Shown here piece by piece: positions 8,721 through 53,848 of a DNA stretch of 64,000 nucleotides. Position 1 is the stretch's first letter; each line of letters begins with the position of its first letter. The notes under the pieces are model-generated. The model saw nothing but the letters and a program-made list of their open reading frames with translations. It had not been told where the DNA came from and searched no databases. The position numbers and the translations under genes are program-made. This DNA is from Chlamydiales bacterium. GTDB lineage: Bacteria; Chlamydiota; Chlamydiia; Chlamydiales; JACRBE01. The DNA lies in NCBI GenBank assembly GCA_016213235.1, contig JACRBE010000040.1, positions 811 through 64,810 of the forward strand, read 5' to 3'.

Positions 8721-10865
8721 TTAAAGAGTTGGATCAAATTCATATATGCTATCAAATATATAAGGGCTATCCCGCTCATCTTCTTGCGAACCAAAAAATG
8801 TATCAAGGGCATCTAATGCAGACGTTCTTCTAGATGGATCTGTTTGAAGAAACGATTGAATCACTCTTTTTATTTTTTCCAATTCTTCTAACCCTACCTC
8901 TCTTGAGAGGTTTTCTAATCTTTCCTCAGAAAATTGTTCCATAAATTTCTTTTTTCCAATTTCCATAACATACTGTTGAAGACCCTCTTTCCCCCCTTCA
9001 CCATGATCGCAATGCCATTTCCAGGCTGTTGTAAAATATCTTTGTTCCTCCTGCTCTTCAGGGGACAGTGAAGTGGCACCTATAACGTCATGATGCGGAG
9101 CAGACACGACTTCCATTGTTGCGTCCCCGCGTTCTACTAACTCCTTTCCAAGGTTTACGCAATATTCCTGAAATTGTTTTTTACCATGCAGCACTAACAT
9201 TTTCTCTACTTTTCTTTGTGCAAGCAAAAACAAGAAAGCATCGTCTTTCATTTTTTCGGAAATACCTCTCTCCAGTACACGATCTATTACCGTCTGACCT
9301 ACCTCGCTAATACGCTGCAAAAGAATCTCACCCTCTAACAGACCATATTGAGTTGCAGTACCTCTTAGGCCCTCATTAACACAAATTTCCATAAAAGAGA
9401 GTCCAAACAACATCTCAAATAGTGTAACGCCAAAAGACCAGAGATCATCCGATGTTCTAGACTCCCGCTGATATCTGGTAGTTAAAAATTCTTTCACTCG
9501 GTCAGGAGCTAGACAATGCATGGTATATGACCCCCGATGCTCCTTGGCATCTACAGAGTGTATTGTGTCATGATCAATAAACTTCACATCATATGGAAAA
9601 CAATCGGTTTCACTGCTTCTAGATGATTGGAACAACATGATATTCTCTATCTTAATGTCTCCACTTGCAAGAGGTTCTCTTCTGTCGAAGAATCTCTCAA
9701 CACATTCTTTTCGATTAAACATCTCAAATGAACTTGCTCGGGAACTATCACGCGACCCAACTGACACACTACTTTCACAATACTGTGCGCCTCTAGAATC
9801 TAGATCACTGATTGTTTCACTATCTGACATCGATACTGACACACTTACGTCAGGACTATCTGGGGGAAATTTCTTCTTTACTCTCTTTTTTTCTAAAGAC
9901 TTAATACAATCTTCCCCGGTTTCTTCCTCTACCGGAAAATCCATGGCATCATCATCACCTAAATCGGGCAGAGGATTACGTTGTTTTGATGGTTGTACAC
10001 TGCCCGTTGTCGTGCCATATTCAGCAAATCGTACAGGTCTTTCTTCGGTATAATATCGTTCTATATTACATCTTGCCGGATTGTGCAAAGTTGCCAGGCC
10101 TTGCAATAAGGTTTTTACAATATCTGGAAAATATCTTATTAATCCATTATGTTGTTCTTTATTCAAAACAGCGTCAAGTAACGAAATGCTTCCCCGTTCC
10201 ATATAAACCTGAGAAACGTCCTGGCTGATAAAGTAAATCTTAGCAAATACAGGATGATTTAATTCTAATATTTTTTTACAACCGTCTATCATCTCTCTTG
10301 CTATGCGAGAAGAAGGCAAAAGCTTACTTCCTGGTTCTTTTACCACTAATGAGACGCCATTACAAGTGAATGCTTTCACAACACCCCTCCCTCCTTTTCC
10401 AATGATTCCTTGACAGGCCGATACAATTCCGCGTTCCAGAATATCTTTAATTATTAGAATTAACTGTTTTGGAATAGCATGGGCATAAAAGGGGTTTTCA
10501 TTATGCGGATCAAAATTCTCTTGTATATTTCTTAAATGCAATAGAAAAAACCTTAGCCCATTCAACAAGTTTTCGGACTCAAACATCACTTGACGATGTT
10601 CATCCGCTAGAAGAGTTGCATCCGTTTGACAGATTTTGACCATATGCTCACTCCATAACCTGTTAACTGCCTCTTTTGTTTTTTCAAGTGTCATTCCTGT
10701 TTCTATAATAGATCCATCTAAATTACGCCTTTTTTCTTGATTTATCACAGGAGATTTGAGCAACCGGTCTAATATCCAAACAAAATTTTTTTTAGTACGC
10801 ATTATCGTCGTTTTAAATTCAGAAGTAGGATAGAATGACGTGCCAGGATTTCTTACAGGATCCAT
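8721..10865 (-). CDS. Eukaryotic-like Ser/Thr protein kinase with large low-complexity insertions (candidate secreted effector)
   Basis: Motifs occur in canonical kinase order: G-loop IGKGGRGVVK, VVK lysine, catalytic-loop-like SGDIKIENIM, DHD in place of DFG, APD, DLWSFGVTLFEML and DPSRR. Confidence 0.65.
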   Translation of the reverse strand: MDPVRNPGTSFYPTSEFKTTIMRTKKNFVWILDRLLKSPVINQEKRRNLDGSIIETGMTLEKTKEAVNRLWSEHMVKICQTDATLLADEHRQVMFESENLLNGLRFFLLHLRNIQENFDPHNENPFYAHAIPKQLILIIKDILERGIVSACQGIIGKGGRGVVKAFTCNGVSLVVKEPGSKLLPSSRIAREMIDGCKKILELNHPVFAKIYFISQDVSQVYMERGSISLLDAVLNKEQHNGLIRYFPDIVKTLLQGLATLHNPARCNIERYYTEERPVRFAEYGTTTGSVQPSKQRNPLPDLGDDDAMDFPVEEETGEDCIKSLEKKRVKKKFPPDSPDVSVSVSMSDSETISDLDSRGAQYCESSVSVGSRDSSRASSFEMFNRKECVERFFDRREPLASGDIKIENIMLFQSSRSSETDCFPYDVKFIDHDTIHSVDAKEHRGSYTMHCLAPDRVKEFLTTRYQRESRTSDDLWSFGVTLFEMLFGLSFMEICVNEGLRGTATQYGLLEGEILLQRISEVGQTVIDRVLERGISEKMKDDAFLFLLAQRKVEKMLVLHGKKQFQEYCVNLGKELVERGDATMEVVSAPHHDVIGATSLSPEEQEEQRYFTTAWKWHCDHGEGGKEGLQQYVMEIGKKKFMEQFSEERLENLSREVGLEELEKIKRVIQSFLQTDPSRRTSALDALDTFFGSQEDERDSPYIFDSIYEFDPTL

Positions 10866-11169: not shown

Positions 11170-11217
11170 GTATAGTAGAAATAGCCAAGAGAAACGGGCT
11201 GCATACTTTTAACGTGA
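11170..11217 (+). mobile_element. 48-bp fragment of the IS5-family transposase gene seen intact at 52990-53856
   Basis: 44/48 identity with 53658-53705 (gtaYagtagaaatagccaagagaaacg...). Confidence 0.7.
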
Positions 11218-11218
11218 C

Positions 11219-11415
11219 CTATTCAAGATTATATGTTAGCAGTATGTGGGTCACCGGATGCTCAAATTCCATTTGAACATGCATTAGCATCACTTCCGTA
11301 TTGTGATTACTTCCATATTTTTTATCTCCAAGGATAGGACAGCCAATAAAAGCCAGTTGCGCTCTAATCTGATGATACTTTCCTGTAATCAAATCAATTT
11401 TTAGTGTGATGGGAT
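11219..11415 (-). pseudogene. 3' fragment of an RluA-family pseudouridine synthase gene (diverged copy of 13193-13386)
   Basis: ITLKIDLITGKYHQIRAQLAFIGCPILGDKKYGSNHNTEVML.. compares with ITLKIDLITGKYHQIRAQLSFIGCPIVGDKKYGSNHNTEVML.. in the full gene. The N-terminal two thirds are missing. Confidence 0.85.
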
Positions 11416-11423
11416 GCTCATTT

Positions 11424-11476
11424 AAGATAGGAAATATCAAAAACAGCCATTATAGGACAACTGTTTCTCTATAACG
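11424..11476 (-). repeat. Duplicate of the eamA start codon region and its upstream sequence (copy of 8396-8448)
   Basis: 49/53 identity. It includes the ATGGCTGTTTTTGATATTTCCTATCTT start of eamA. Confidence 0.85.
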
Positions 11477-11572
11477 CATAGCTAATAATCTTCAAAAATC
11501 ACCTATAACATTCCTCAACTGTTTTGTATTAAACATGTTATAAAAAAGCAAATTAAAATTGCATTTTTAATC

Positions 11573-11700
11573 AAATCAGCGAAATCTAATGTTTTTTTAT
11601 AGATTCCGCTGATTTGAATAATAAAATCAGCGAAATCTAATGTTTTTTTATAGATTCCGCTGGTTTGAATAACAAAATCAGCGAAATCTATTGATTTTAT
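11573..11700. repeat. 51-bp tandem repeat, about 2.4 copies, each carrying a 14-11-14 palindrome
   Basis: Units start at 11575, 11626 and 11677. The arms are atcagcgaaatcta / tagattccgctgat. Confidence 0.9.
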
Positions 11701-11742: not shown

Positions 11743-13203
11743 ATGCACAGCTCTATTTTTGGAAGAGAAAGAGAGATTGAAACTCTTACGAGGTTGCTCC
11801 ATTCAACAAAACCCGAGTTTCTTGCTATTTATGGGAGAAGACGAGTTGGTAAAACTTATCTTATCCATGAGTTTTTTAAAGATAAGGGAGTATACTTTTG
11901 TATTACAGGCACTCGCAATAATAGCAAGCAATCGCAGATTCACAAGTTTACCAGAGAATTACAGAACATGTTTCCATCCCAAGACAAAATAAAAGAGCCA
12001 AAGAATTGGGATGATGCTTTATATCTCCTGAAAGACGCTGTAAGTAAAATCGATATTACAAAAAAAGTAATCATTTTTTTCGATGAACTTCCATGGCTTG
12101 CATCTAATCGTTCCGGCTTTTTACCGGCTCTTGAATACTTATGGAACCAACATTTCTCTCGTATGAATAATGTCATTTTAGTTATATGCGGTTCTGCAGC
12201 AAACTGGATCATTAAAAAAGTGATTAATAATAAAGGCGGACTATATGGTCGTCTGAGTGAAATAATAAAATTGCATTCTTTTACATTAACTGAGACACGA
12301 GCATTTCTTCTATCACAACATGTCCAGTTATCTCGCAAACAGTTAGTCGAATGTTACATGTGTATGGGAGGAATTGCCAAATATCTTACCTATATACGAC
12401 CCGGAGAATCTACAGCTCAGATTATTAATCGACTATGCTTTACTCCGCAAGGAACCCTTACAGGTGAATTTAATAACCTTTACCAATCTCTTTTTAATCA
12501 TGCTCAAGTCCATATAGACATTGTTAAAGAGTTAGCAAAACATAAAAGTGGTATTGCAAAGCAACAACTGCTTGACAACTTGCAGATTACTTCAGGAGGA
12601 CAAACTACTTTAATTTTGGAAGAGTTAGAAGAAGCAGGTTTTATCACAGCCTGTCCCGAATTCCAAAAAACCGGTAAAGGTAAACGATTGTGGCTCATTG
12701 ATGAATACTCCTATTTTTATCTCAATTGGATGGAACATGTCAAATGGAGTATCATTTTAGGAAATGATCAGGACTATTGGCTAAAAATGCAAAACGATCC
12801 TCAATGGAAGACTTGGTCAGGATACGCATTTGAGAGCATTTGTTTTAAACATATTGCACAAATTAAAAAATCGCTCGGAATCGCAGCATTGCTTACACGC
12901 GAATCACAATGGGTCTATAAGCCTAAAGATAAATCTGAAAAAGGAGCTCAAATTGATTTAATCATTGATCGTAAAGATGATTGTATCAATTTATGTGAAA
13001 TTAAATTTCATCATGGCACTTTTACCATTGATCGCGATTATGCAAAGGAATTAGAGCATAAAATAAATGTATTTCGAGAGCAGACTAAAACCAGGAAGAC
13101 GATATTTTTGACTCTCATTACCCCTTTTGGACTACATAAAAATGAATATTCCCGTGAACTGGTGCAATGTGAATTAACACTCGATGATTTTTTCAAAGAT
13201 TAA
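11743..13203 (+). CDS. AAA+ ATPase (archaeal-ATPase/DUF234-like) with wHTH-like and PD-(D/E)xK-like C-terminal region
   Basis: Walker A GRRRVGKTY, Walker B IIFFDELPW, and C-terminal IDLIIDR...LCEIKF. Confidence 0.75.
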   Translation: MHSSIFGREREIETLTRLLHSTKPEFLAIYGRRRVGKTYLIHEFFKDKGVYFCITGTRNNSKQSQIHKFTRELQNMFPSQDKIKEPKNWDDALYLLKDAVSKIDITKKVIIFFDELPWLASNRSGFLPALEYLWNQHFSRMNNVILVICGSAANWIIKKVINNKGGLYGRLSEIIKLHSFTLTETRAFLLSQHVQLSRKQLVECYMCMGGIAKYLTYIRPGESTAQIINRLCFTPQGTLTGEFNNLYQSLFNHAQVHIDIVKELAKHKSGIAKQQLLDNLQITSGGQTTLILEELEEAGFITACPEFQKTGKGKRLWLIDEYSYFYLNWMEHVKWSIILGNDQDYWLKMQNDPQWKTWSGYAFESICFKHIAQIKKSLGIAALLTRESQWVYKPKDKSEKGAQIDLIIDRKDDCINLCEIKFHHGTFTIDRDYAKELEHKINVFREQTKTRKTIFLTLITPFGLHKNEYSRELVQCELTLDDFFKD

Positions 13204-13813
13204 ATGTTAGTGGTATATGTGTCACAGGATGCTTAAACTCTATTTGAACATGTTTTAGCATGACTTCTGTATTGTGATTACTTCCATATTTTTTATCTCC
13301 AACAATGGGACACCCGATAAAGGAGAGTTGAGCTCTGATCTGATGATATTTTCCTGTAATCAAATCGATTTTTAATGTGATGGGATTTTCTTTTATTACT
13401 TCGTAATGCAGCACAGCTTCTGTAGCATCTTTTGTTTGATGATTGGAGATAATGGCGTAATGCTCCCCCTTTTGATGAAAATGCCTTAATGTATCTTTTT
13501 TCTTTGGAGGCATTTTTTCTACAATAGCAAGATATGTTTTTTTGATTTTCTTCTCTCGCATCTGCTCATTTAGCCTGGATAATGCTTTTGATGTTCTTGC
13601 AAAAACAACAATCCCTCCTACCGGTTTATCAAGGCGAAAGATCGCATGTAAAAACACACTCTCTTTACCCGATTTTTCTTTTAGATAATCTTTAGCCATA
13701 GTTTCCAAACTGACGGCATGATCTTTCGATGGCTGCGTAGGTATCCCTTTTGGTTTATTAACAACCAGAAGATGATTATCTAGAAAAAGAATGTCTTTGT
13801 CTGACAACTTCAT
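13193..13813 (-). CDS. RluA-family pseudouridine synthase
   Basis: HLLVVNKPKG, catalytic RLDKPVGG and HQIRAQL motifs. The ORF extends to 13843 but Met at 13813 (MKLSDKDILF) is the likelier start. Confidence 0.8.
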   Translation of the reverse strand: MKLSDKDILFLDNHLLVVNKPKGIPTQPSKDHAVSLETMAKDYLKEKSGKESVFLHAIFRLDKPVGGIVVFARTSKALSRLNEQMREKKIKKTYLAIVEKMPPKKKDTLRHFHQKGEHYAIISNHQTKDATEAVLHYEVIKENPITLKIDLITGKYHQIRAQLSFIGCPIVGDKKYGSNHNTEVMLKHVQIEFKHPVTHIPLTFNL

Positions 13814-14594
13814 ACATGAGCACAGTGGTTGCATTAGAAACATTTAAAGAATCTGCTTTTCCGAGCATCGGAATTTTTATCCGGTGCGATGCCTGAGAAA
13901 TCCAAAATACACTAAGGCCAAGCTGCTCTGTGCCAACCAAAATAGCAATAGGTCCTTTCATATTGATATCGTAATAGAGCTCGTCGGTATGGGGTGTTGC
14001 AGCCACAAGATCAATATGATATTTTTTCATGATCGGCATAATCTCCTGGTTACTTAGTTCAAATACAGGAACAGTAAATAGTGTCCCTACACTCGAGCGC
14101 ACTACATTGGGGTTATAGATATCTGTGCATCTATTTGCAACAATAACACCATGACATCCTGTTGCATCTGCAGAGCGTAAAATCGATCCTAAATTACCCG
14201 GTTTTTCAATGGATTCTGCAATGATAAGAAATGGATCTTTTATCTTGGCCAAATAATGATCTAAATCTTTTACGGTTTTATTTTGCACTTTTGCAATCGC
14301 TAAGAGTCCATCGGGACGATCTCTATAGGAAATCTTTGCAAAAACTTCTTTAGTTACTTCAAATTTTTGGGCTTGAATGGAGTCGATTAGGTCATACTCG
14401 TTTTCTCCCAAAAACAAATCTGGAGCATAAAAGAGTTGCGTAAAGGTCCAATTCGCCTCTTTTGCACGCAAACATTCTCGATACCCTTCGATTAAAAAAA
14501 GACCCGTTTCATCGCGATCTTTTTTATTTTTTAACCTGGTAACTGTTTTGATTTTAGGATTATGAATGCTTGTTATGTCCATGATGTGCTCCAT
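13776..14594 (-). CDS. TrmH/SpoU-family RNA 2'-O-methyltransferase
   Basis: SpoU substrate-binding N-domain plus the EKPGNLGSILRS, LVGTEQLGLS and SLNVSNA motifs. Confidence 0.8.
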   Translation of the reverse strand: MEHIMDITSIHNPKIKTVTRLKNKKDRDETGLFLIEGYRECLRAKEANWTFTQLFYAPDLFLGENEYDLIDSIQAQKFEVTKEVFAKISYRDRPDGLLAIAKVQNKTVKDLDHYLAKIKDPFLIIAESIEKPGNLGSILRSADATGCHGVIVANRCTDIYNPNVVRSSVGTLFTVPVFELSNQEIMPIMKKYHIDLVAATPHTDELYYDINMKGPIAILVGTEQLGLSVFWISQASHRIKIPMLGKADSLNVSNATTVLMYEVVRQRHSFSR

Positions 14595-34744: not shown

Positions 34745-35956
34745 ATGAAACACAACACGCGTAATATCCGCATTTTATATTTGTTTCCAATTTTGCTTAT
34801 TTTATATGAATTCTCTATTAACATGTCCAACGATATGTATTTGCCTGCTCTTATTGTATTAACAAAAGAATTCGATGTTTCTAGCCATATTATTCAACTT
34901 ACTATTGTAGCATGGCTTCTTGGTTCTGCATCGATTCAGCTCATTTTAGGCCCTGTATCAGATAAACATGGCAGGCGTCCGGTTTTTTTCCTAGGTGGTG
35001 TCATTTTCCTTATTTCTACGATTGTCTGCGCTTTAGCCCCATCTATCATCATATTAATCATTGCTAGGTTTTTTCAGGGCATGGCAGTCTCTTGTTTGAT
35101 GGTAGCAGGATATGCCTCTATTCATGAAATTTTTGAAGATAAAACATCTATTCGCATTTTATCTTGGATGGGATCTGCTGCTATTTGCGCTCCAATTATT
35201 GGCCCTATTCTTGGTGGATATATACTGTATTTCAGTACTTGGAGAATGATTTTTATTTTGCTGTTTCTCCTATCATTTCTTACATTAATTGCTCTTTGGA
35301 AAGTAATGCCGGAAAGTAATTTAGATTCTAATGAAAAATCACTGGCACCAAAAAAATTATTGCATAGCTATCTCAATATTTTTTTAAATAAAAAATTTAT
35401 GACAAAAGCTTTACCTACAGGATGTTTGTATAGCGGGATTATCATTTGGATTACAGCAGCTCCCTTTATTATCATGGACCTCTTTCAAATACCGGAACAA
35501 TATTTTGGATTTACTCAAGTACCAATCTTTTTAGGATATATAGTTGGAGCTAGCATCATGCGTGTAATGTTAGATCGTTTTAATATCTCTTTCTTAGGAC
35601 TTCTTGGAATTACAGTATCTATCATTAGCGCGTTAATTTTATTGCTGCTTACACTAGACCATTCTAATTCTATCTGGTACTTAATTCTACCCATGGTCGG
35701 ATATACCTTTGGCTGTGGATTTGCCAATGCTCCTATGACAAAAGCTGCGTTTGCCTCTACAGATGAAGACATCGGTGCGGTAACGGCTTTTTTTTATCTG
35801 AAACTAGCAGGACTTGGAGCGCTAGGGAGCTTGATTGTTAGTATCGTTTACACACACACCATACTTCCTATCAGCATTTTGCTCTTTGTTGTTTCTCTTA
35901 TTGCGTGGACCATTCATGTATTTACCCATCTTTTTGCATCCTCAAAAGAACTATAA
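34745..35956 (+). CDS. MFS multidrug-type transporter (Bcr/CflA-like)
   Basis: 12-TM profile with the DMYLPAL and DKHGRRP motifs. The start is uncertain (34706, 34715 or 34745). The ORF-track start at 34667 lies inside the rpsJ terminator. Confidence 0.75.
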   Translation: MKHNTRNIRILYLFPILLILYEFSINMSNDMYLPALIVLTKEFDVSSHIIQLTIVAWLLGSASIQLILGPVSDKHGRRPVFFLGGVIFLISTIVCALAPSIIILIIARFFQGMAVSCLMVAGYASIHEIFEDKTSIRILSWMGSAAICAPIIGPILGGYILYFSTWRMIFILLFLLSFLTLIALWKVMPESNLDSNEKSLAPKKLLHSYLNIFLNKKFMTKALPTGCLYSGIIIWITAAPFIIMDLFQIPEQYFGFTQVPIFLGYIVGASIMRVMLDRFNISFLGLLGITVSIISALILLLLTLDHSNSIWYLILPMVGYTFGCGFANAPMTKAAFASTDEDIGAVTAFFYLKLAGLGALGSLIVSIVYTHTILPISILLFVVSLIAWTIHVFTHLFASSKEL

Positions 35957-37072
35957 ATACAGTCCTTTTAAGAATCGCAGCGCACTTACTATTTCTATTC
36001 CTGATTCTATTTTTTCTCGTTTTAATTCTTTTACTATTTGAATTGCAGGTAATTGATATTTTTCATGAAAATATTTAAGCCCCGGATTTAATTGATGATC
36101 CGAATGTTTTACTTCTATGATCTTTTCGACCTGATCATTATATACAAGAGCAAAATCCACTTCCTGTCTCTCTTTTGTATGCAAATAATGAAGAACATAT
36201 GTTTGTGCTTCATAATCTATTTTTGCCAGCACATGTTTTAATAAACAGCCAGCAATAAAATTCTCTAATTTAATACCATCATCTCCTTGTACTAGGCCTG
36301 TATCAAAAAAATAAATTTTTGGTTCTTTAAGTAAACTACGGGCAATATTATTTGAAAAAGGAGTGATGCGGAAGACAATATAAAGAGCCTCTAAAATTTG
36401 GATATATTTTTTTACCGTATTAGGAGAAATAGCAACATCTTGCGCTATGGATGTATAAGAAATAGGTGATCCTACTCGTTTTCTTAATAGCTCAAAAACA
36501 AGCCGAATTGCATTTAAATTTTGAATGTTTTCAAAATCAAGAACATCTTCCCGTAGTAAACTGTCCACATATTGTAGCCTCCATCTATTAGCATCTACTA
36601 ACTCTTCCGCCAGAAATGGTTCCGGAAAACCACCTCGCTCCAAAAATCGATCTATCGTATACTCAATATCTACCCTATCACACTCTGCAGGAGAAAAAGG
36701 CATCAATCGATGTAAAAAGTATCTACCTGCAAGTGAATCCCCTACCTGATTAAAAATCTCAAGACGAGCACTACCTGTCACAAGTATTTTTTGATGCTCT
36801 GATTTCGTATCATAAATCCCTTTTAAATAGTTTTTCCACTCAGGCATTTTATGTATTTCATCGAGAATGATTAATTCTACTGAAGGAATCCAGGCTTCTT
36901 GCAAGATGAGTTTTCGATCCTCTAATCTATCATAATTCAAATAGATAGAAGACTCAAATTCCTTTGCTATAGCTTTAGCTAATGTGGTTTTACCAACTTG
37001 GCGAGGACCTGCCAGTAATACCATTTTTTTTCTTAAATCACGTAAAATTGCGGCTTTTTGATATCTTTCCAT
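35951..37072 (-). CDS. AAA+ ATPase (AAA_14/DUF4143-like) with HTH and PD-(D/E)xK-like motif
   Basis: Walker A GPRQVGKTT, Walker B LIILDEIH, HTH-like SIAQDVAISPNTVKKYIQILE, and C-terminal EVDFALV...IIEVKHSD. Confidence 0.8.
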   Translation of the reverse strand: MERYQKAAILRDLRKKMVLLAGPRQVGKTTLAKAIAKEFESSIYLNYDRLEDRKLILQEAWIPSVELIILDEIHKMPEWKNYLKGIYDTKSEHQKILVTGSARLEIFNQVGDSLAGRYFLHRLMPFSPAECDRVDIEYTIDRFLERGGFPEPFLAEELVDANRWRLQYVDSLLREDVLDFENIQNLNAIRLVFELLRKRVGSPISYTSIAQDVAISPNTVKKYIQILEALYIVFRITPFSNNIARSLLKEPKIYFFDTGLVQGDDGIKLENFIAGCLLKHVLAKIDYEAQTYVLHYLHTKERQEVDFALVYNDQVEKIIEVKHSDHQLNPGLKYFHEKYQLPAIQIVKELKREKIESGIEIVSALRFLKGLYL

Positions 37073-37076
37073 ATTT

Positions 37077-37138
37077 GACTATTTTGCATCGCTTTGCAAA
37101 AAAGTCAAGACTATTTTGCATTTCATTGCATAATAGTC
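37077..37138. promoter_or_regulatory. Two tandem 12-6-12 palindromes immediately upstream of the 35951-37072 ATPase start codon
   Basis: gactattttgca-tcgctt-tgcaaaaaagtc (37077-37106) and gactattttgca-tttcat-tgcataatagtc (37109-37138). Each has one arm mismatch. Confidence 0.6.
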
Positions 37139-37234
37139 ATATTAAAAAATATTTTAATCGTTGGCTATAAGTAACTAGGGATTTTTTTACTAACTGGTTA
37201 TTCGTATCATTTGTAACGTTGTAAAAAGTCTTTT

Positions 37235-38554
37235 CTAATTGTTATCTGGTGAAATCTCCATGGGAAATCGATTCATATAATAAAGAGGATAATTGCAGAG
37301 ATTTCCATCTTTTTTTAGGTTCATTAAAGACGATCTGGAAAGTACAGGGGAATGGTATTTTTCTTGATACACTAAAAGGCTCTTTTTCTTTGTCGAAGTA
37401 CCTGATTTTACCTCCAATGGAAAAATTCTCCCCTCTTTTTCCAAGAGAAAGTCAACTTCCGCTTCTCTTTCGCTTGTCCAATAATAAAGTGGATTTTCAT
37501 CAGCCGCTTTCAAAGCCTGAGCAACATAATTTTCCGTGAATGAGCCCTTGAACTCCACAAAAAACAGATCTCCCTCCACGATCACACGGGCAGGCAGCCG
37601 ACACATGGCACCAAGCAATCCAACATCAAGAAGATAAACCTTAAATGCCTCACGATCACCATAACTTTTTAAAGGCAATTTGGGTGTAGAAACCTGGTAA
37701 GCCTTATAAATTAATTCTGCGTCCACAAGCCATTGCAAAGATTCTTCATAATCCCTTGCACGAGCACTTTTTTTAATAGCGGAAAAAACAAACTTCTTGT
37801 TTTCTTTCCCCAGATGAATAGGAATAGAATCCCATATTTGAGTAATTTTTATGACAAGCGAAGGAGGCGCATGTTTTGCAAAATCATGGACGTATGCCTT
37901 GAGAATATCTTCTTGTATTTCTCGTACCATATTGAGATCTTTTGTCTGTACATAACGCAGCACAGGTTTAGGCATCCCCCCAACATAGAAATAAATTTTA
38001 AGTAATTCCAATAATTGCTGATGATGTGCCTCAGCAATTGGCTCAAAGGTTTTAATCTCTTCCAATAGAGTTCTTAACATAGGCCTGCCTATCGCATCAA
38101 GAAATTCAAAAAAGGTCATTGGAAAAAGGTGGCAAAAATGCACTTTCCCTACTGGGAAACCTCTAGCACCGGATAATTTAACACCCAGTAATGACCCGGC
38201 AGCAACTACTGAATACTCTGGAGCCTGTTCACAAAAATATTTCAAACTTGTTAAAGCATGAGGGCACTCTTGAATTTCATCGAAAATAATCAATGTTGTA
38301 GCTGGATCTATTTTCATTTCCAAATGAATACCAAGATCTCGCAAAATACGATCCGGATTAAGATCCGGTTCAAAAAAAGTCTTGCAGGCTGGCATTTCTT
38401 CGAAATTTATATAGCAGCAATTTTTATATTCCTGAAAACCAAATTCTTTTAAGAGATAGGTCTTTCCCACCTGCCGGGCGCCCTGAACCAAAAGTGGTTG
38501 GCGGTCAGGATCTTTTTTCCATAAAAGTAATTGTTTATAAAGGTCTCTTTTCAT
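37235..38554 (-). CDS. AAA+ ATPase (AAA_14/DUF4143-like) with PD-(D/E)xK-like motif
   Basis: Walker A GARQVGKTY, Walker B LIIFDEIQ, and C-terminal EVDFLLEKEGRIFPLEVKSG. Confidence 0.8.
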   Translation of the reverse strand: MKRDLYKQLLLWKKDPDRQPLLVQGARQVGKTYLLKEFGFQEYKNCCYINFEEMPACKTFFEPDLNPDRILRDLGIHLEMKIDPATTLIIFDEIQECPHALTSLKYFCEQAPEYSVVAAGSLLGVKLSGARGFPVGKVHFCHLFPMTFFEFLDAIGRPMLRTLLEEIKTFEPIAEAHHQQLLELLKIYFYVGGMPKPVLRYVQTKDLNMVREIQEDILKAYVHDFAKHAPPSLVIKITQIWDSIPIHLGKENKKFVFSAIKKSARARDYEESLQWLVDAELIYKAYQVSTPKLPLKSYGDREAFKVYLLDVGLLGAMCRLPARVIVEGDLFFVEFKGSFTENYVAQALKAADENPLYYWTSEREAEVDFLLEKEGRIFPLEVKSGTSTKKKSLLVYQEKYHSPVLSRSSLMNLKKDGNLCNYPLYYMNRFPMEISPDNN

Positions 38555-38580
38555 ATCTTCAATATAGCAAACCCATGCTT

Positions 38581-38670
38581 TTCCCTGTATAAAAAGTGTT
38601 GTTTTTCACAATATTCCCTGTATAAAATGTGAAATTTTTCACAATATTCACAGGGAATAATGTGAAATCA
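38581..38670. promoter_or_regulatory. 33-bp direct repeat x2 plus a partial, partly inverted third unit upstream of the 37235-38554 ATPase
   Basis: ttccctgtataaaaagtgttgtttttcacaata and ttccctgtataaaatgtgaaatttttcacaata (29/33), then ttcacagggaataatgtgaaatcac. The region contains the gtgaaatttttcac near-palindrome. Confidence 0.6.
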
Positions 38671-38785: not shown

Positions 38786-39130
38786 CTAATTGTTATTATC
38801 CGGGAAAAGATCATCACTATAGATTGCTTGATATGGCGGTGGATTATCAAACCTTACATACTTACCAACAACTTTACCATCAGAAACAACTAGAAAATAT
38901 TTTCTTTGCTGAATAACTTGAGGACCTTTGGTCACCCTTTCTACATATTCATACACTTGTTGTTTTTTCCCAATAGAACGAATTTCTACCGGAGGACCAA
39001 ACTCCTGCTCAATCGTAGCGATCGGTGTTCCTGTAGAAATATCAGAAAATCGATCCTGCGTCATTACCGAATAACGACTGCACCCGAATAAAAAAACACC
39101 TGCTAATAGGGCTAATAATACTCTTTTCAC
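38786..39130 (-). CDS. Small outer-membrane lipoprotein, BamE/SmpA_OmlA-like
   Basis: A GTG start at 39130 sits 7 nt after AGGAG. It gives MKRVLLALLAGVFLFGC with a lipobox. The mature part resembles the BamE fold pattern. Confidence 0.55.
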   Translation of the reverse strand: MKRVLLALLAGVFLFGCSRYSVMTQDRFSDISTGTPIATIEQEFGPPVEIRSIGKKQQVYEYVERVTKGPQVIQQRKYFLVVSDGKVVGKYVRFDNPPPYQAIYSDDLFPDNNN

Positions 39131-39134
39131 TCTT

Positions 39135-39587
39135 CTACTCCTGCTTGGTCTGTTTCCAAATTTTTCCTTGTATAAGCGTTTTAAACTCGTCGCCTGTTGC
39201 ATATTCTCCTTTCATTTCACAAGAGCCATCTTGTTGTAATTGGTAATATTCATACCCCTCAAAACCAAGATCGTTATCTCTAAATTCCCACCCAATAAAA
39301 CCATCATCTATTATCCCTTCGCCAAAAACTTTTCCCCAAGCTTGATTTTCTAGCTCTACTTCGAATCTCTTCCCATCAAAATTAGAAAATAAATATTGAT
39401 TTAACATGATATCCGTATGTCCAGCTACTTGTATTTCTTGTGTAGCATCGACTTCTAATAGATCAGGGTCTCCTGTAGTTGATTTCCATCTTGTATAAAA
39501 TACAAGCACCTCTTCTACATTGGATAATTGGATGCTACCTTCTCCTATCCAATTTCCTCCTGAAAATAAAAATTTATGCGTAAACAT
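39135..39587 (-). CDS. Hypothetical protein (150 aa), translationally coupled to rodA
   Basis: The MFTHKF start overlaps the rodA stop as TAATG (39585-39589). The longer ORF to 39713 lies inside rodA. Confidence 0.55.
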   Translation of the reverse strand: MFTHKFLFSGGNWIGEGSIQLSNVEEVLVFYTRWKSTTGDPDLLEVDATQEIQVAGHTDIMLNQYLFSNFDGKRFEVELENQAWGKVFGEGIIDDGFIGWEFRDNDLGFEGYEYYQLQQDGSCEMKGEYATGDEFKTLIQGKIWKQTKQE

Positions 39588-40708
39588 TAAAACATATACC
39601 TTCTTGTATAAATACTTTGTAATATTCCCAACGCTATCATCGTTACCAACACAGAAGACCCCCCATAAGTAACTAAAATAAGTGGGACCCCTGTAATGGG
39701 TAAAAAGCCGCACATCATACCAACATTAATAATAACATGCATAGCTAAGTATATACCAAATCCAGCAGAAAGCAAACGACCAAATAAATCTTTTGCTACT
39801 GCTACTACTTGAAAACTAAAGTAAATTAATGTAAAAAAAAGCCCAAGCAACACAGTAGCCCCTACTAACCCAAATTCTTCTGCAAATGCACAAAATACAG
39901 AGTCAGTATGTGCAAAGGGAAGCCATTTTTTTCCTGTAAACTCACTTTTACACCACCCACTACCAAAAACACTACCAAGAGCTATCGCTGTTTGCCCAGC
40001 TTTTTGATGGTAGGTATTTGGGTTCAATCTTTCGTACTGATATTCTTTCAAGAATTTTGTTGCAACAGGTTTAAATTCATCATGTGGGATCACATTAGAA
40101 AACATTAAAAAAACAAATACCAATCCTAATATCCCTATAATGTTCATAATCCACATGACCTCTTTTCTAATATTCCCAAGATAAAATATCCCCAGTGTAA
40201 TAGGATATAATATCATGGCAGAACCAAGATCTGGTTGTTTTAAGATAAGAATAAAAGGTATTAACACAATCACTCCTGCAATGATCGCTGTTTTCCATGT
40301 ATACGCATTATGTTGATTTTTTTCTAAAAACCAGCTGAGGGTAATGATAACAATAATCTTACCAAATTCTGATGGTTGAAGAGCAAATGAAATAAGTGGG
40401 AAACGATACCAACGATGTACATGTTGAATCGGATCGGTAAAAAACAGACCTATTAAGAGCAGTAAAATAAACACATACGTCACAGGAGCATATTGTTTTA
40501 ATTTTCTATAATCAAAACACACAAAAAACATATATACGATAAACCCAATACCAAATGCCCGTAACTGTCCTTTTACATAACGAGTCATGAGCTCTTTTCC
40601 ATCCGTTGTAGCAGAGGAAATAATACATAAACTAATGATCATAATACAAACGATAATAGGCAGCGTTTTGAAATCAAGTTTTCTTAAAAATTTCGCATCA
40701 AACATCAA
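39587..40708 (-). CDS. rodA: SEDS-family peptidoglycan polymerase (RodA/FtsW)
   Basis: 373 aa, about 10 TM helices, with QPSEFGK and C-terminal GGSS motifs. It is divergent from birA, as I recall for chlamydial rodA. Confidence 0.8.
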   Translation of the reverse strand: MMFDAKFLRKLDFKTLPIIVCIMIISLCIISSATTDGKELMTRYVKGQLRAFGIGFIVYMFFVCFDYRKLKQYAPVTYVFILLLLIGLFFTDPIQHVHRWYRFPLISFALQPSEFGKIIVIITLSWFLEKNQHNAYTWKTAIIAGVIVLIPFILILKQPDLGSAMILYPITLGIFYLGNIRKEVMWIMNIIGILGLVFVFLMFSNVIPHDEFKPVATKFLKEYQYERLNPNTYHQKAGQTAIALGSVFGSGWCKSEFTGKKWLPFAHTDSVFCAFAEEFGLVGATVLLGLFFTLIYFSFQVVAVAKDLFGRLLSAGFGIYLAMHVIINVGMMCGFLPITGVPLILVTYGGSSVLVTMIALGILQSIYTRRYMF

Positions 40709-52607: not shown

Positions 52608-52989
52608 ATAGAGTAGACTGGCCTTAGCCAGCCCCTCATCAAACCGTACGTGCGGGTTTCCCGCATACGGCTTTCACATAAACGTCACATAGATTTCCTT
52701 ACAAACGCCCGCCTTGACAAGGTAAATAATCCTAGCTTCTTAAGAACTTCATGCCAGTTCTGTCCTTCAGGTCTCTTGTATCTTCGTTGAGATCTTCTTT
52801 GTAGGAAGTTTATCAAGCGCTGTTCGGTATACCAATTGATCTTTTCAAATGCATCGCTTGGTGTTCCTTTATTGAAGTAGCTTCCCCATCCTTTAAGAAA
52901 TCTGTTTACGCTACTTATTACATCCTTAATGGGTATACACCCACGTGTAGGACTAGTTAGCTCTCTTATTCTTGCTCTTGCACATTTAA
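52608..52989 (-). mobile_element. Group II intron, 3'-terminal remnant (end of maturase ORF, domain V, domain VI)
   Basis: Domain V is AAGCCGTATGCGGGAAACCCGCACGTACGGTTT (52641-52674, minus strand). Domain VI is a hairpin with a bulged A about 7 nt from the inferred 3' end (..TCTACTCTAT, ending at 52608). Confidence 0.8.
52685..52989 (-). pseudogene. Group II intron reverse transcriptase/maturase, C-terminal (X/maturase) part only
   Basis: ..ARIRELTS...VNRFLKGWGSYFNKG...INWYTEQRL.. is present. The RT domains are missing. Confidence 0.75.
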
Positions 52990-53043: not shown

Positions 53044-53388
53044 TTGGAGGTAATGATGAGCCACTTTTATCCGAGCGATGTCTCTCGTGAACAATTTAGT
53101 GAAATCAAGCCAATGCTTGAGTCTGTACGCAAGAAAACTCGTCCTAGAATTGTTGATCTTTATGATATTTTTTGTGGGGTTTTGTATGTTTTAAAAAGCG
53201 GTTGTCAATGGCGTATGTTACCAAAAGAATACCCTAAATGGGAATTATGCTATTATTACTTCAGTCTTTGGAAACAAAAAGACCATCAAAGCTCTGAAAG
53301 TATCCTCGAAAAAGTTTTAAAAAAAAATGGTTGGAGAGGTTCGACAAAACAGTGGTCGGAAAGAGAAAACCGGTTTTATCATAGTTGA
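53044..53388 (+). CDS. IS5-family transposase orfA (N-terminal DNA-binding part)
   Basis: ..IFCGVLYVLKSGCQWRMLPKEYP.. is typical of the family. The frame ends shortly after the A9 run at 53319-53327. Confidence 0.8.
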   Translation: MEVMMSHFYPSDVSREQFSEIKPMLESVRKKTRPRIVDLYDIFCGVLYVLKSGCQWRMLPKEYPKWELCYYYFSLWKQKDHQSSESILEKVLKKNGWRGSTKQWSERENRFYHS

Positions 53389-53848
53389 TGAACAAAGCGT
53401 TAAAAATACAGATACAGCTGAAAGCAAAGGTTATGATGCAGGGAAAAAGATATCCGGAATAAAACGTCATATAGCAGTAGACACTCAGGGATTACCTCAT
53501 GCAATTCATATAACCACTGCAAATGTGACGGATAGAAATGGAGCTATAGAAGCATGTTTATTGAACAAAAGCTCTTTATCCGATGTGAAAAACGTATTAG
53601 CGGATGGAGGATACTCCGGGGAAAATTTTTTAAATAGTGTTCAGGAAATATTAGGGTGTACAGTAGAAATAGCCAAGAGAAACGAGCTACATACTTTTAA
53701 AGTGATTCCTAAAAGATGGGTAGTAGAGCGCTCCTTCGCCTGGTTAGAGAAGTGTCGCAGGCTATGGAAAAACTGCGAAAGAAAGCTTAACACAAGTCTG
53801 AACATGGTGGTTCTAGCTTTTGCAGTCCTTCTTTTAAGGAGATTTTAA
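53327..53848 (+). CDS. IS5-family transposase orfB (DDE catalytic part), +1 frame relative to orfA
   Basis: IIVDEQSVKNT..., KKISGIKRHIAVDTQGLP, ADGGYSG and VVERSFAWLEKCRRL motifs. Confidence 0.8.
   Translation: MVGEVRQNSGRKEKTGFIIVDEQSVKNTDTAESKGYDAGKKISGIKRHIAVDTQGLPHAIHITTANVTDRNGAIEACLLNKSSLSDVKNVLADGGYSGENFLNSVQEILGCTVEIAKRNELHTFKVIPKRWVVERSFAWLEKCRRLWKNCERKLNTSLNMVVLAFAVLLLRRF

Follow-up and report, generated by a model that had tools for sequence, protein, structure and literature searches.

Three ATPase and predicted nuclease genes in a Chlamydiales genome as candidate autoregulated one-gene cassettes with their own operator arrays

Background

The question raised by this locus is why three genes for ATPases with a nuclease-like C-terminus should each be preceded by a repeat array of their own. 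The genes, called A, B and C throughout, lie in a 64,000-nucleotide (nt) stretch of the Chlamydiales contig JACRBE010000040.1, hereafter the window. We find that the arrays of A and B overlap or directly precede the predicted promoters, that arrays are kept with their genes in unrelated genomic neighborhoods, and that bases of the gene A array covary with a residue in the predicted recognition helix of the gene A protein. Each gene is probably a self-contained, negatively autoregulated one-gene cassette.

A preliminary description of the window had called these genes orphans, a label that has to be withdrawn. Full-length PADLOC matches place A (PDLC04789, 5.8e-59) and B (PDLC04786, 2.4e-169) in PDC-S01 and C (PDLC04984, 3.4e-182) in PDC-S27, families already described as ATPase plus PD-(D/E)xK candidate defense genes (PMC3424549, PMC12988326, bioRxiv 10.1101/2024.01.29.577857). 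DUF4143/COG1373 and DUF234/COG1672 were assigned to the PD-(D/E)xK superfamily in 2012 (PMC3424549). PDC-S01 is reported to rank fourth in abundance among defense-type genes in prokaryotes, with ~39,000 instances in one survey, and PDC-S27 has ~8,000 instances in the same survey (PMC12988326). The PDC models derive from genes lying inside BREX, DISARM or type I restriction-modification (R-M) loci and are candidates only (bioRxiv 10.1101/2024.01.29.577857). A literature search returned no account of mechanism or regulation and no solved full-length structure for PDC-S01 or PDC-S27, and the papers searched credit neither family with operator arrays of its own, autoregulation or leaderless promoters. 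The defense hypothesis, the families themselves and their nuclease nature had been published before; what appears to be new, within the literature searched, is the presence of cognate operator arrays, the covariation between recognition helix and operator, and the predicted leaderless promoter layout.

Results

The gene A promoter-operator

Gene A (35951-37072, minus strand) encodes a protein of 373 amino acids (aa), and its array (37077-37139) consists of two 32-nt units, each a palindrome GACTATTTTGCA-N6-TGCAAAAAAGTC. The promoter-operator occupies 37077-37138 on the minus strand, with a distal palindrome, P1, at 37109-37138 and a proximal palindrome, P2, at 37077-37106, each of 12-6-12 layout. 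A -35 element TTGACT (37103-37108) and a -10 element CAAAAT (37081-37086) are predicted here on the same strand, and the ATG stands 4 nt past P2.

A scan of one genome per species gave 413 relatives of gene A. The loci analyzed are the best 80 of these 413 (67-80% identity; named L008-L087), and nearly all are from metagenome-assembled genomes of Chlamydiota (Parachlamydiaceae, Simkaniaceae, Rhabdochlamydiaceae, Waddliaceae and Anoxychlamydiales). Together with the window they make a set of 81 loci, and 76 loci entered the promoter hexamer and covariation tables. The P1-P2 double palindrome abutting the ATG is kept in 77 of the 81, in unrelated neighborhoods, with the consensus GACTwTTyyGCA-N6-TGCrrAAwAGTC-T-TGACTwTTyyGCA-N6-TGCAwAATAGTC. 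Similarity between loci extends exactly from the first GACT of P1 to the stop codon, and nothing is kept beyond. An inverted repeat no more than 25 nt from the start was found for 49% of the gene A orthologues and 3.2% of control open reading frames (ORFs), a statistic used for A alone because the arrays of B and C are more distant from the start and the criterion does not suit them.

The promoter elements are conserved within this double palindrome. In the proximal palindrome region, the -35 hexamer reads TTGACT at 50 of 76 loci, and the hexamer 16 nt further on reads CAAAAT, CATAAT or CAGAAT at 73 of 76. The arm of the proximal palindrome that bears the -10 element varies far less than the matching arm of the distal palindrome. 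The gap between P2 and the ATG is 3-4 nt in 69 of 77 loci, which puts the ATG ~7 nt past the -10 element; each of the four loci with a gap of 13-25 nt has a Shine-Dalgarno-like purine-rich stretch (GGAGG or similar). Because an ATG 3-4 nt past the palindrome leaves no space for a Shine-Dalgarno sequence, we infer that the gene A mRNA is leaderless, and the promoter layout of gene B, given below, suggests the same. Among six distant plasmid-borne relatives (29-33% identity), a single palindrome touches the start codon in three (Thiothrix, Emticicia and Granulicella).

Covariation between the gene A operator and its recognition helix

The 76 gene A proteins were aligned and screened for columns that separate four loci with aberrant half-sites (..CCA/TGG.. 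versus ..GCA/TGC..) from all others. Only four alignment columns did so, residue 218 most cleanly, and this residue is the first of the predicted helix-turn-helix (HTH) recognition helix (S-P-N-T-V-K-K-Y). At the 63 loci with N218, position 10 of the half-site is G in essentially all half-sites. With T218 (five loci), position 10 is C in four of five, as against none of the 71 other loci (Fisher p=3.9e-6). With H218 (seven loci), T replaces C at positions 8-9 in 7/7 versus 10/63 (p=1.6e-5), and the single S218 locus has A at position 10. By a neighbor-joining tree the variants of residue 218 arose ~12 times independently, and their closest relatives are N218 loci: L061 (H218) shares 90-91% identity with L023 and L027 (N218, CC/CT operators), and L042 (T218) shares 87% with L044 (N218). 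The four half-sites of a locus covary about equally (z ~4.4-5; lower for the -10-bearing arm), and half-site mismatches show no bias toward G-U over C-A, as expected if one protein recognizes all of them and not if a particular hairpin is maintained.

Because the arrays travel with their genes across contexts and because operator and residue 218 covary, there is strong in silico evidence that the winged HTH (wHTH) of A would recognize the operator of its own gene. Since this operator covers both the -35 and the -10 element, negative autoregulation would be its natural reading. The self-regulation put forward in the preliminary description is thus supported, at the level of sequence, by co-conservation of array and gene in unrelated contexts together with the covariation.

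Arrays of genes B and C

Gene B (37235-38554, minus strand; 439 aa) has a promoter-operator array at 38561-38667 on the minus strand that is built of 33-nt palindromic units TTTCACA..ATTCCCTG/CAGGGAAT..TGTGAAA. Two units are in tandem (38581-38613 and 38614-38646) and a third copy is inverted (38637-38667), and a predicted -10 element TATATT (38561-38566) ends 6 nt ahead of the ATG. Arrays of this type, with two to three 33-nt units TCACA-ATTCCCnGGGAAT-TGTGA, are kept in all nine loci surveyed for gene B. These lie in nine different contexts, with neighbors that include the sucA operon, a TPS hemagglutinin, mfd, chorismate synthase, a second paralogue accompanied by BrxC/D fragments, and an ATPase_2 gene together with ParE/RelB. 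A TAnnAT hexamer is found exactly 6 nt ahead of the ATG in 8/8 loci. Relatives of B at 57% identity have the same array layout with altered boxes.

Gene C (11743-13203, plus strand; 486 aa) is preceded by an array at 11568-11700 on the same strand, in which 2.5 tandem 51-nt units form five 12-nt boxes TCAGCGrAATCT in alternating orientation (at 11576, 11601, 11627, 11652 and 11678). A conventional GGAGG ribosome-binding site lies between array and ATG. In the gene C survey (~10 loci), orthologues at 65-76% identity keep TCAGCGrAATCT...AGATTyCGCTG repeats, and at 51-55% identity the arrays of relatives are of similar design but built from other boxes, CTCGCCAAATCT, CCGCGAAAA and TTGGCTAnATAT.

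Pattern searches of the window found each array motif at its own gene alone (2, 5 and 3 occurrences observed versus 0.0, 0.7 and 0.3 by chance), and the earlier label of private repeat sets is accurate for that reason.

ATPase and nuclease domains

All three ORFs have the motifs first noticed in them, namely a Walker A motif G.R.VGKT, a Walker B motif hhhhDE and, toward the C-terminus, (V/I)D(F/L)...E(V/I)K; the Walker motifs (GxxxxGK[ST] and hhhhDE) are nearly invariant among homologues. In A these are GPRQVGKT (36986-37009), LIILDEI (36854-36874), EVDF (36152-36163) and EVK (36107-36115), with the wHTH at ~36380-36493 and residue N218 at 36419-36421. In B they are GARQVGKT (38459-38482), LIIFDEI (38273-38293), TENYVA (37520-37537), EVDF (37448-37459) and EVK (37406-37414), and in C GRRRVGKT (11833-11856), IIFFDEL (12070-12090), FESIC (12829-12843), QIDL (12949-12960) and EIK (12997-13005).

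The proposal that the three genes share one architecture stands in part. Profile-profile alignment (E=6.7e-5) shows the AAA_14/DUF4143 and ATPase_2/DUF234 families to be collinear from the P-loop to the ExK motif, so the plan of NTPase, wHTH and PD-(D/E)xK is common to them; C, by contrast, belongs to a different Pfam family pair from A and B. Pfam assigns AAA_14 and DUF4143 to A (97 and 97.5 bits) and to B (91.6 and 128 bits), all above the gathering score and with E-values of 1e-26 to 4e-37. B falls in a different subfamily from A and has ~24% identity to it over A residues 165-373. C matches ATPase_2 (PF01637) at 73 bits (4e-20), above the gathering score, and DUF234 at 20.2 bits, just under the cut-off of 22.5, and is described here as DUF234-like. 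NCBIfam yielded no specific family for the cassette proteins. Sequence searches of the PDB returned no solved relative and nothing else informative for A or B; those with C gave the archaeal Walker ATPase 2qen and, beyond it, just weak matches to TnsC.

AlphaFold2 (AF2) models covered the C-terminal parts, residues 165-373 of A and 301-486 of C. The predicted local distance difference test score (pLDDT) averaged 61 for A, rising to 70-88 in the final ~110 residues, and was 77 for C. Both models show the order H-E-E-E-H-E (alpha-beta-beta-beta-alpha-beta), with pLDDT 70-95 over the core. The top PDB neighbors by Foldseek were all PD-(D/E)xK proteins: McrC, EcoT38I, BstEII, DdmD, Bax1, SfsA and MspJI for A, and AF1548, NucS/EndoMS, the Cas4-like ACE1, MspJI, SfsA and SduA for C. 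Putative catalytic residues are E270, D306 and E320-x-K322 in A, E341, D368 and E381-x-K383 in B, and E364, D405 and E419-x-K421 in C; in alignments of 33 and 34 sequences these E/D/ExK positions show either no variation or a conservation of at least 90%. Since both the core fold and the putative catalytic residues are recovered, the nuclease-like core proposed earlier is retained, and AF2 and Foldseek agree, weakly, on a restriction-endonuclease-like PD-(D/E)xK domain, a predicted nuclease, in A and C.

Discussion

The proposed cassette and its role

We consider it probable, for the explanation as a whole, that each gene is a one-gene cassette of the following kind. The protein would join an ORC/Cdc6- or STAND-like P-loop ATPase to a winged-helix DNA-binding domain and a PD-(D/E)xK domain with an intact E...D...ExK site, whose nuclease activity would presumably be ATP-dependent. 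Each cassette would carry its own sigma-70-type promoter, whose -35 and -10 elements, for A and B, would lie within or directly after two to three palindromic operators, with the ATG 6-7 nt past the -10 element giving a leaderless mRNA. The wHTH would bind the palindromes, probably in dimeric form at neighboring sites spaced by one to three helical turns, and so occlude RNA polymerase. A potentially toxic nuclease would in this way be kept at a low, buffered level.

Several points weigh against this explanation. The Foldseek E-values are weak (best 1.5e-3 and 7e-4; range 7e-4 to 1e-2), if uniform in their nuclease theme, and the wHTH region of A (residues 165-250) is modeled by AF2 with low confidence (pLDDT <50). 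The covariation comes from 13 variant loci, which are phylogenetically scattered and few in number. Repression, as the direction of regulation, would follow only from the overlap of operator and promoter. Two of the six distant plasmid-borne relatives have no start-proximal palindrome, which is accordingly not a universal feature of the family. Others concern the conservation and surroundings of gene A and are taken up with the next alternative.

As to role, triggered degradation of invading DNA or an addiction-like function is the likeliest candidate, which we put forward tentatively and at somewhat less than even chances. In Thermus thermophilus, TT_P0211 (AAA_14 plus DUF4143) is reported to be up 6.6-fold only when plasmid DNA and Argonaute were present together (PMC4406477, Table 1), which hints that members of the family respond transcriptionally to foreign DNA. 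Also to be set against a defensive role is the report that, of eight candidates, four did not protect E. coli B from T4, T5 or T7, a representative each of PDC-S01 and PDC-S27 being among these four (PMC12881386 / bioRxiv 10.1101/2024.09.26.614923). A search of a phage collection gave just 16 weak matches, and nothing in them points to a phage origin.

A broader idea for both families, which we regard as quite unlikely, is that the wHTH does more than autorepress. The specificity of the ATPase-nuclease would co-evolve with the promoter array as a "self-address", and the array would be a nucleation or sensing site; titration by incoming DNA, or occupancy disturbed during infection, would yield a de-repressed, active nuclease. 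Such a cassette would be a one-gene, operator-coupled switch for immunity or exclusion, and reverse-complementary spacers between P1 and P2 (see below) would mark extrusion of a cruciform or hairpin recognizable by a nuclease domain resembling a Holliday-junction resolvase.

Genomic context and a housekeeping alternative

Gene A could be autoregulated and yet be neither defensive nor selfish, serving as a conserved housekeeping factor of Chlamydiota in DNA transactions such as repair, replication restart or chromosome maintenance. Orthologues at 67-80% identity occur in at least 80 species-level genomes across chlamydial families, and gene A shows roughly the same degree of conservation as ribosomal protein S10 (rpsJ, 75.7%). 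It evolves more slowly than its neighbors; in close genomes its identity tracks theirs (r=0.61) and is usually higher. It is mostly flanked by housekeeping genes (gyrB, ABC-F, PhoH-like), which is atypical for defense genes, and is found near fusA-rpsJ in the window and in L042 and L031, at differing micro-positions. Close relatives have inherited gene A in place, and it does not behave like a rapidly evolving island gene; we keep a housekeeping role as a serious, if somewhat unlikely, rival for that reason. The absence of phage protection cited above also favors it.

Set against a housekeeping role is the loss of micro-synteny at deeper levels. The 503 ORFs neighboring the gene A loci fall into 422 clusters; the MFS transporter, RodA, gene B and the lipoprotein next to the cassettes in the window are found at none of the 80 orthologue loci, and rpsJ lies ~5 kb off in one. 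A copy of gene A with 75% identity is on a plasmid of Ca. Rhabdochlamydia oedothoracis (L100, NZ_CP075588.1, 6001-7122), adjoining IS630 transposase genes and a site-specific integrase. In RefSeq/PGAP this copy starts at M17, 48 nt downstream of the proposed ATG, probably because the proposed ATG has no Shine-Dalgarno sequence. Family members are found on 554 plasmids, some relatives adjoin BrxC/D fragments, toxin-antitoxin genes, restriction enzymes or other paralogues, and the family models themselves were built from genes embedded in defense loci, as noted above.

These surroundings bear unevenly on the preliminary description. Its view of the genes as accessory agrees with the lack of strict syntenic core conservation among the 80 orthologue loci. 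For its placing of each gene at a break in conserved gene order there is indirect evidence, from the neighborhoods of the gene A loci and the positions near fusA-rpsJ. A location within or beside known defense systems is not borne out: the cassettes in the window (neighbors rpsJ, MFS transporter, RodA and RluA, with no known defense system adjoining) and most of the 80 gene A loci lie among housekeeping genes, and only some relatives stand beside defense genes. A defense-type or selfish module, as first proposed, goes beyond the findings, the tested representatives giving no protection and gene A being unlike a typical defense-island gene.

Family members also tend to adjoin one another, a tendency that the A-B tandem in the window fits. 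At L006 (4464-7344), two divergent AAA_14-DUF4143 genes, each with its own, different repeat pair spaced by 33-34 nt, are followed by BrxC/BrxD fragments. At L110 (1451-4302), an ATPase_2 gene lies directly upstream of an AAA_14-DUF4143 gene, and ParE/RelB follows.

Structured or mobile elements

The arrays might instead be structured elements, either a long hairpin or cruciform or a site of recombination or mobility (dif/attC-like or IS200/IS605-type), which would explain movement as single genes; we hold this to be very unlikely. The evidence to be explained is in the 6-nt spacers of P1 and P2. These vary freely across genomes and are nevertheless exact mutual reverse complements at 18 of 77 loci, where 0.8 would be expected, and those 18 hold no fewer than 14 different sequences. 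With up to one mismatch allowed the count is 24 loci (3.4 expected). At L082 and L080, arms match between the palindromes better than within them. The arrays fold as single strands at z-scores of -5 to -7, and the 12-6-12 geometry resembles the core sites of tyrosine recombinases.

At gene C there is also a diverged duplication of the 3' end of the gene for an RluA-like pseudouridine synthase. The copy at 11215-11424 (minus strand; 84.8% over 210 nt) is a 73-aa ORF fragment (11219-11440), its partner at 13185-13395 is inside an intact rluA-like gene (13193-13843), and the two direct copies bracket gene C with its array. No rluA was found beside gene C orthologues on other contigs. The bracketing direct duplication of 210 nt resembles a scar left when the C cassette was inserted in a Campbell-type or homology-assisted manner.

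Against a structured element, the spacers are unmatched in two thirds of the gene A loci and look random there, the window included (five of six mismatches). Since complementarity is bimodal across loci, it suggests episodic homogenization of a quasi-palindrome, for example by template switching, and not steady selection for a hairpin. The equal covariation of half-sites, with no G-U versus C-A bias, argues in the same direction. Both palindromes of A are 5' of the gene with no partner site past the stop codon, no recombinase consistently adjoins the gene A loci, and no array has an Rfam match. If transcription starts at the ATG, the palindromes would lie outside the mRNA.

Three specific candidates were weighed on these grounds. 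A structured RNA was rejected for the missing Rfam match, the lack of G-U bias and the equal covariation, fold z-scores being trivial for palindromes. Hairpins of the Xer/dif, attC or IS200/IS605 type do not fit sites that are 5' only, the lack of a recurrent recombinase neighbor and the absence of wobble or strand bias. For the long P1-P2 hairpin, spacer complementarity is real, is bimodal and concerns ~25-30% of loci, and the model is kept as a minor rival. As a separate observation, the complementarity may also reflect concerted evolution of the quasi-palindrome or selection for a cruciform or hairpin in a subset of loci.

Host regulators and replication initiators

It is highly improbable that the palindromes are sites for a host regulator of the CRP/FNR type and the genes ordinary members of a host regulon. 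The array of B does hold TGTGA-N6-TCACA, a classical CRP-type geometry. Three paralogues in one genome nonetheless have three unrelated motifs, each at its own gene alone, and the motifs travel with the gene across Chlamydiota families and onto a plasmid. Bases of the A operator change together with a residue in the recognition helix of A itself, and more distant paralogues have correspondingly altered boxes. A CRP-type site in the B array was rejected in particular, as its motif goes where the gene goes and is altered in relatives at 57% identity.

That the cassettes are ORC/Cdc6-like initiators with iterons, left from a replicon origin or partition site, is barely credible: an AAA+ domain followed by a wHTH beside inverted repeats recalls archaeal orc1/cdc6-ORB, and there are weak Pfam matches to RuvB_N, Rad17, NB-ARC and Hda, but there is overlap between the arrays and a conserved promoter, 3-7 nt from the start codon, three different cassettes occur in 64 kb at variable chromosomal positions, a putative nuclease active site is conserved in the same protein, and no other replicon genes adjoin.

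Comparison with known systems

With the autoregulated one-gene cassette as the preferred explanation, four groups of known systems can be compared. PDC-S01 and PDC-S27 genes are alike in full-length hidden Markov model (HMM) matches and in the same single-gene architecture of ATPase and PD-(D/E)xK domain (PMC12988326, PMC3424549); they differ in that the copies in the window lie among housekeeping genes and not within BREX, DISARM or R-M loci.

The promoter layout recalls R-M controller (C) proteins and the autoregulated promoters of toxin-antitoxin and abortive-infection systems, in which an HTH protein on tandem palindromic operators over its own promoter limits a nuclease or toxin to a safe level. 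Several R-M C-protein genes are transcribed as leaderless mRNAs. Unlike these systems, the cassette has DNA-binding, ATPase and nuclease domains in one polypeptide, with no separate methylase, antitoxin or controller gene and no sequence similarity to C proteins.

McrBC, DdmDE, Avs/STAND proteins with Mrr-like effectors, Shedu SduA and Lamassu LmuA share the combination of an NTPase switch and a restriction-like effector, and the nuclease-domain models find their top structural neighbors among them. The similarity is at the level of fold alone (13-16% identity, E 7e-4 or weaker), the ATPase is of another clade, the cassettes have no sensor domain or partner protein, and a sequence-specific wHTH aimed at its own promoter is not a known feature of these systems. 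Archaeal Orc1/Cdc6 proteins with ORB elements likewise have an AAA+ domain and a winged helix that binds inverted repeats beside the protein's own gene, whereas the cassettes have a nuclease domain, repeats that overlap the promoter and multiple unrelated copies per genome.

Other features of the window

A 714-aa ORF (8721-10865, minus strand) just upstream of the rluA fragment has a protein-kinase-like central region and acidic, serine-rich inserts. A 192-aa ORF downstream of rodA (39135-39713, minus strand) overlaps the RodA ORF (39587-40708, minus strand) by 127 nt and also overlaps the ORF of a putative 138-aa lipoprotein (38786-39202); the GTG and TTG starts listed around 39135-40708 are probably too far upstream. 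Just past the glycogen phosphorylase gene, 52608-52675 (minus strand) matches a group II intron in Rfam (55.7 bits, domain V/VI region), with no adjoining reverse-transcriptase ORF of at least 150 aa. It is followed by a 173-aa DDE-transposase-like ORF (53327-53848, plus strand), and the patch is probably a decayed mobile element.

Conclusions

The 61-bp operator-promoter, the contact between residue 218 and bases 8-10 and the leaderless transcript, all of them predicted, would give this family its first testable molecular handle. There is also a consequence for annotation, as pipelines mis-call the starts of these predicted leaderless genes (in PGAP, M17 on the Rhabdochlamydia plasmid). Within PDC-S01, one subfamily is widespread in environmental Chlamydiota and evolves slowly, unlike a typical fast-moving island gene, which bears on how far automated "candidate defense" labels should be trusted at face value in obligate intracellular bacteria.

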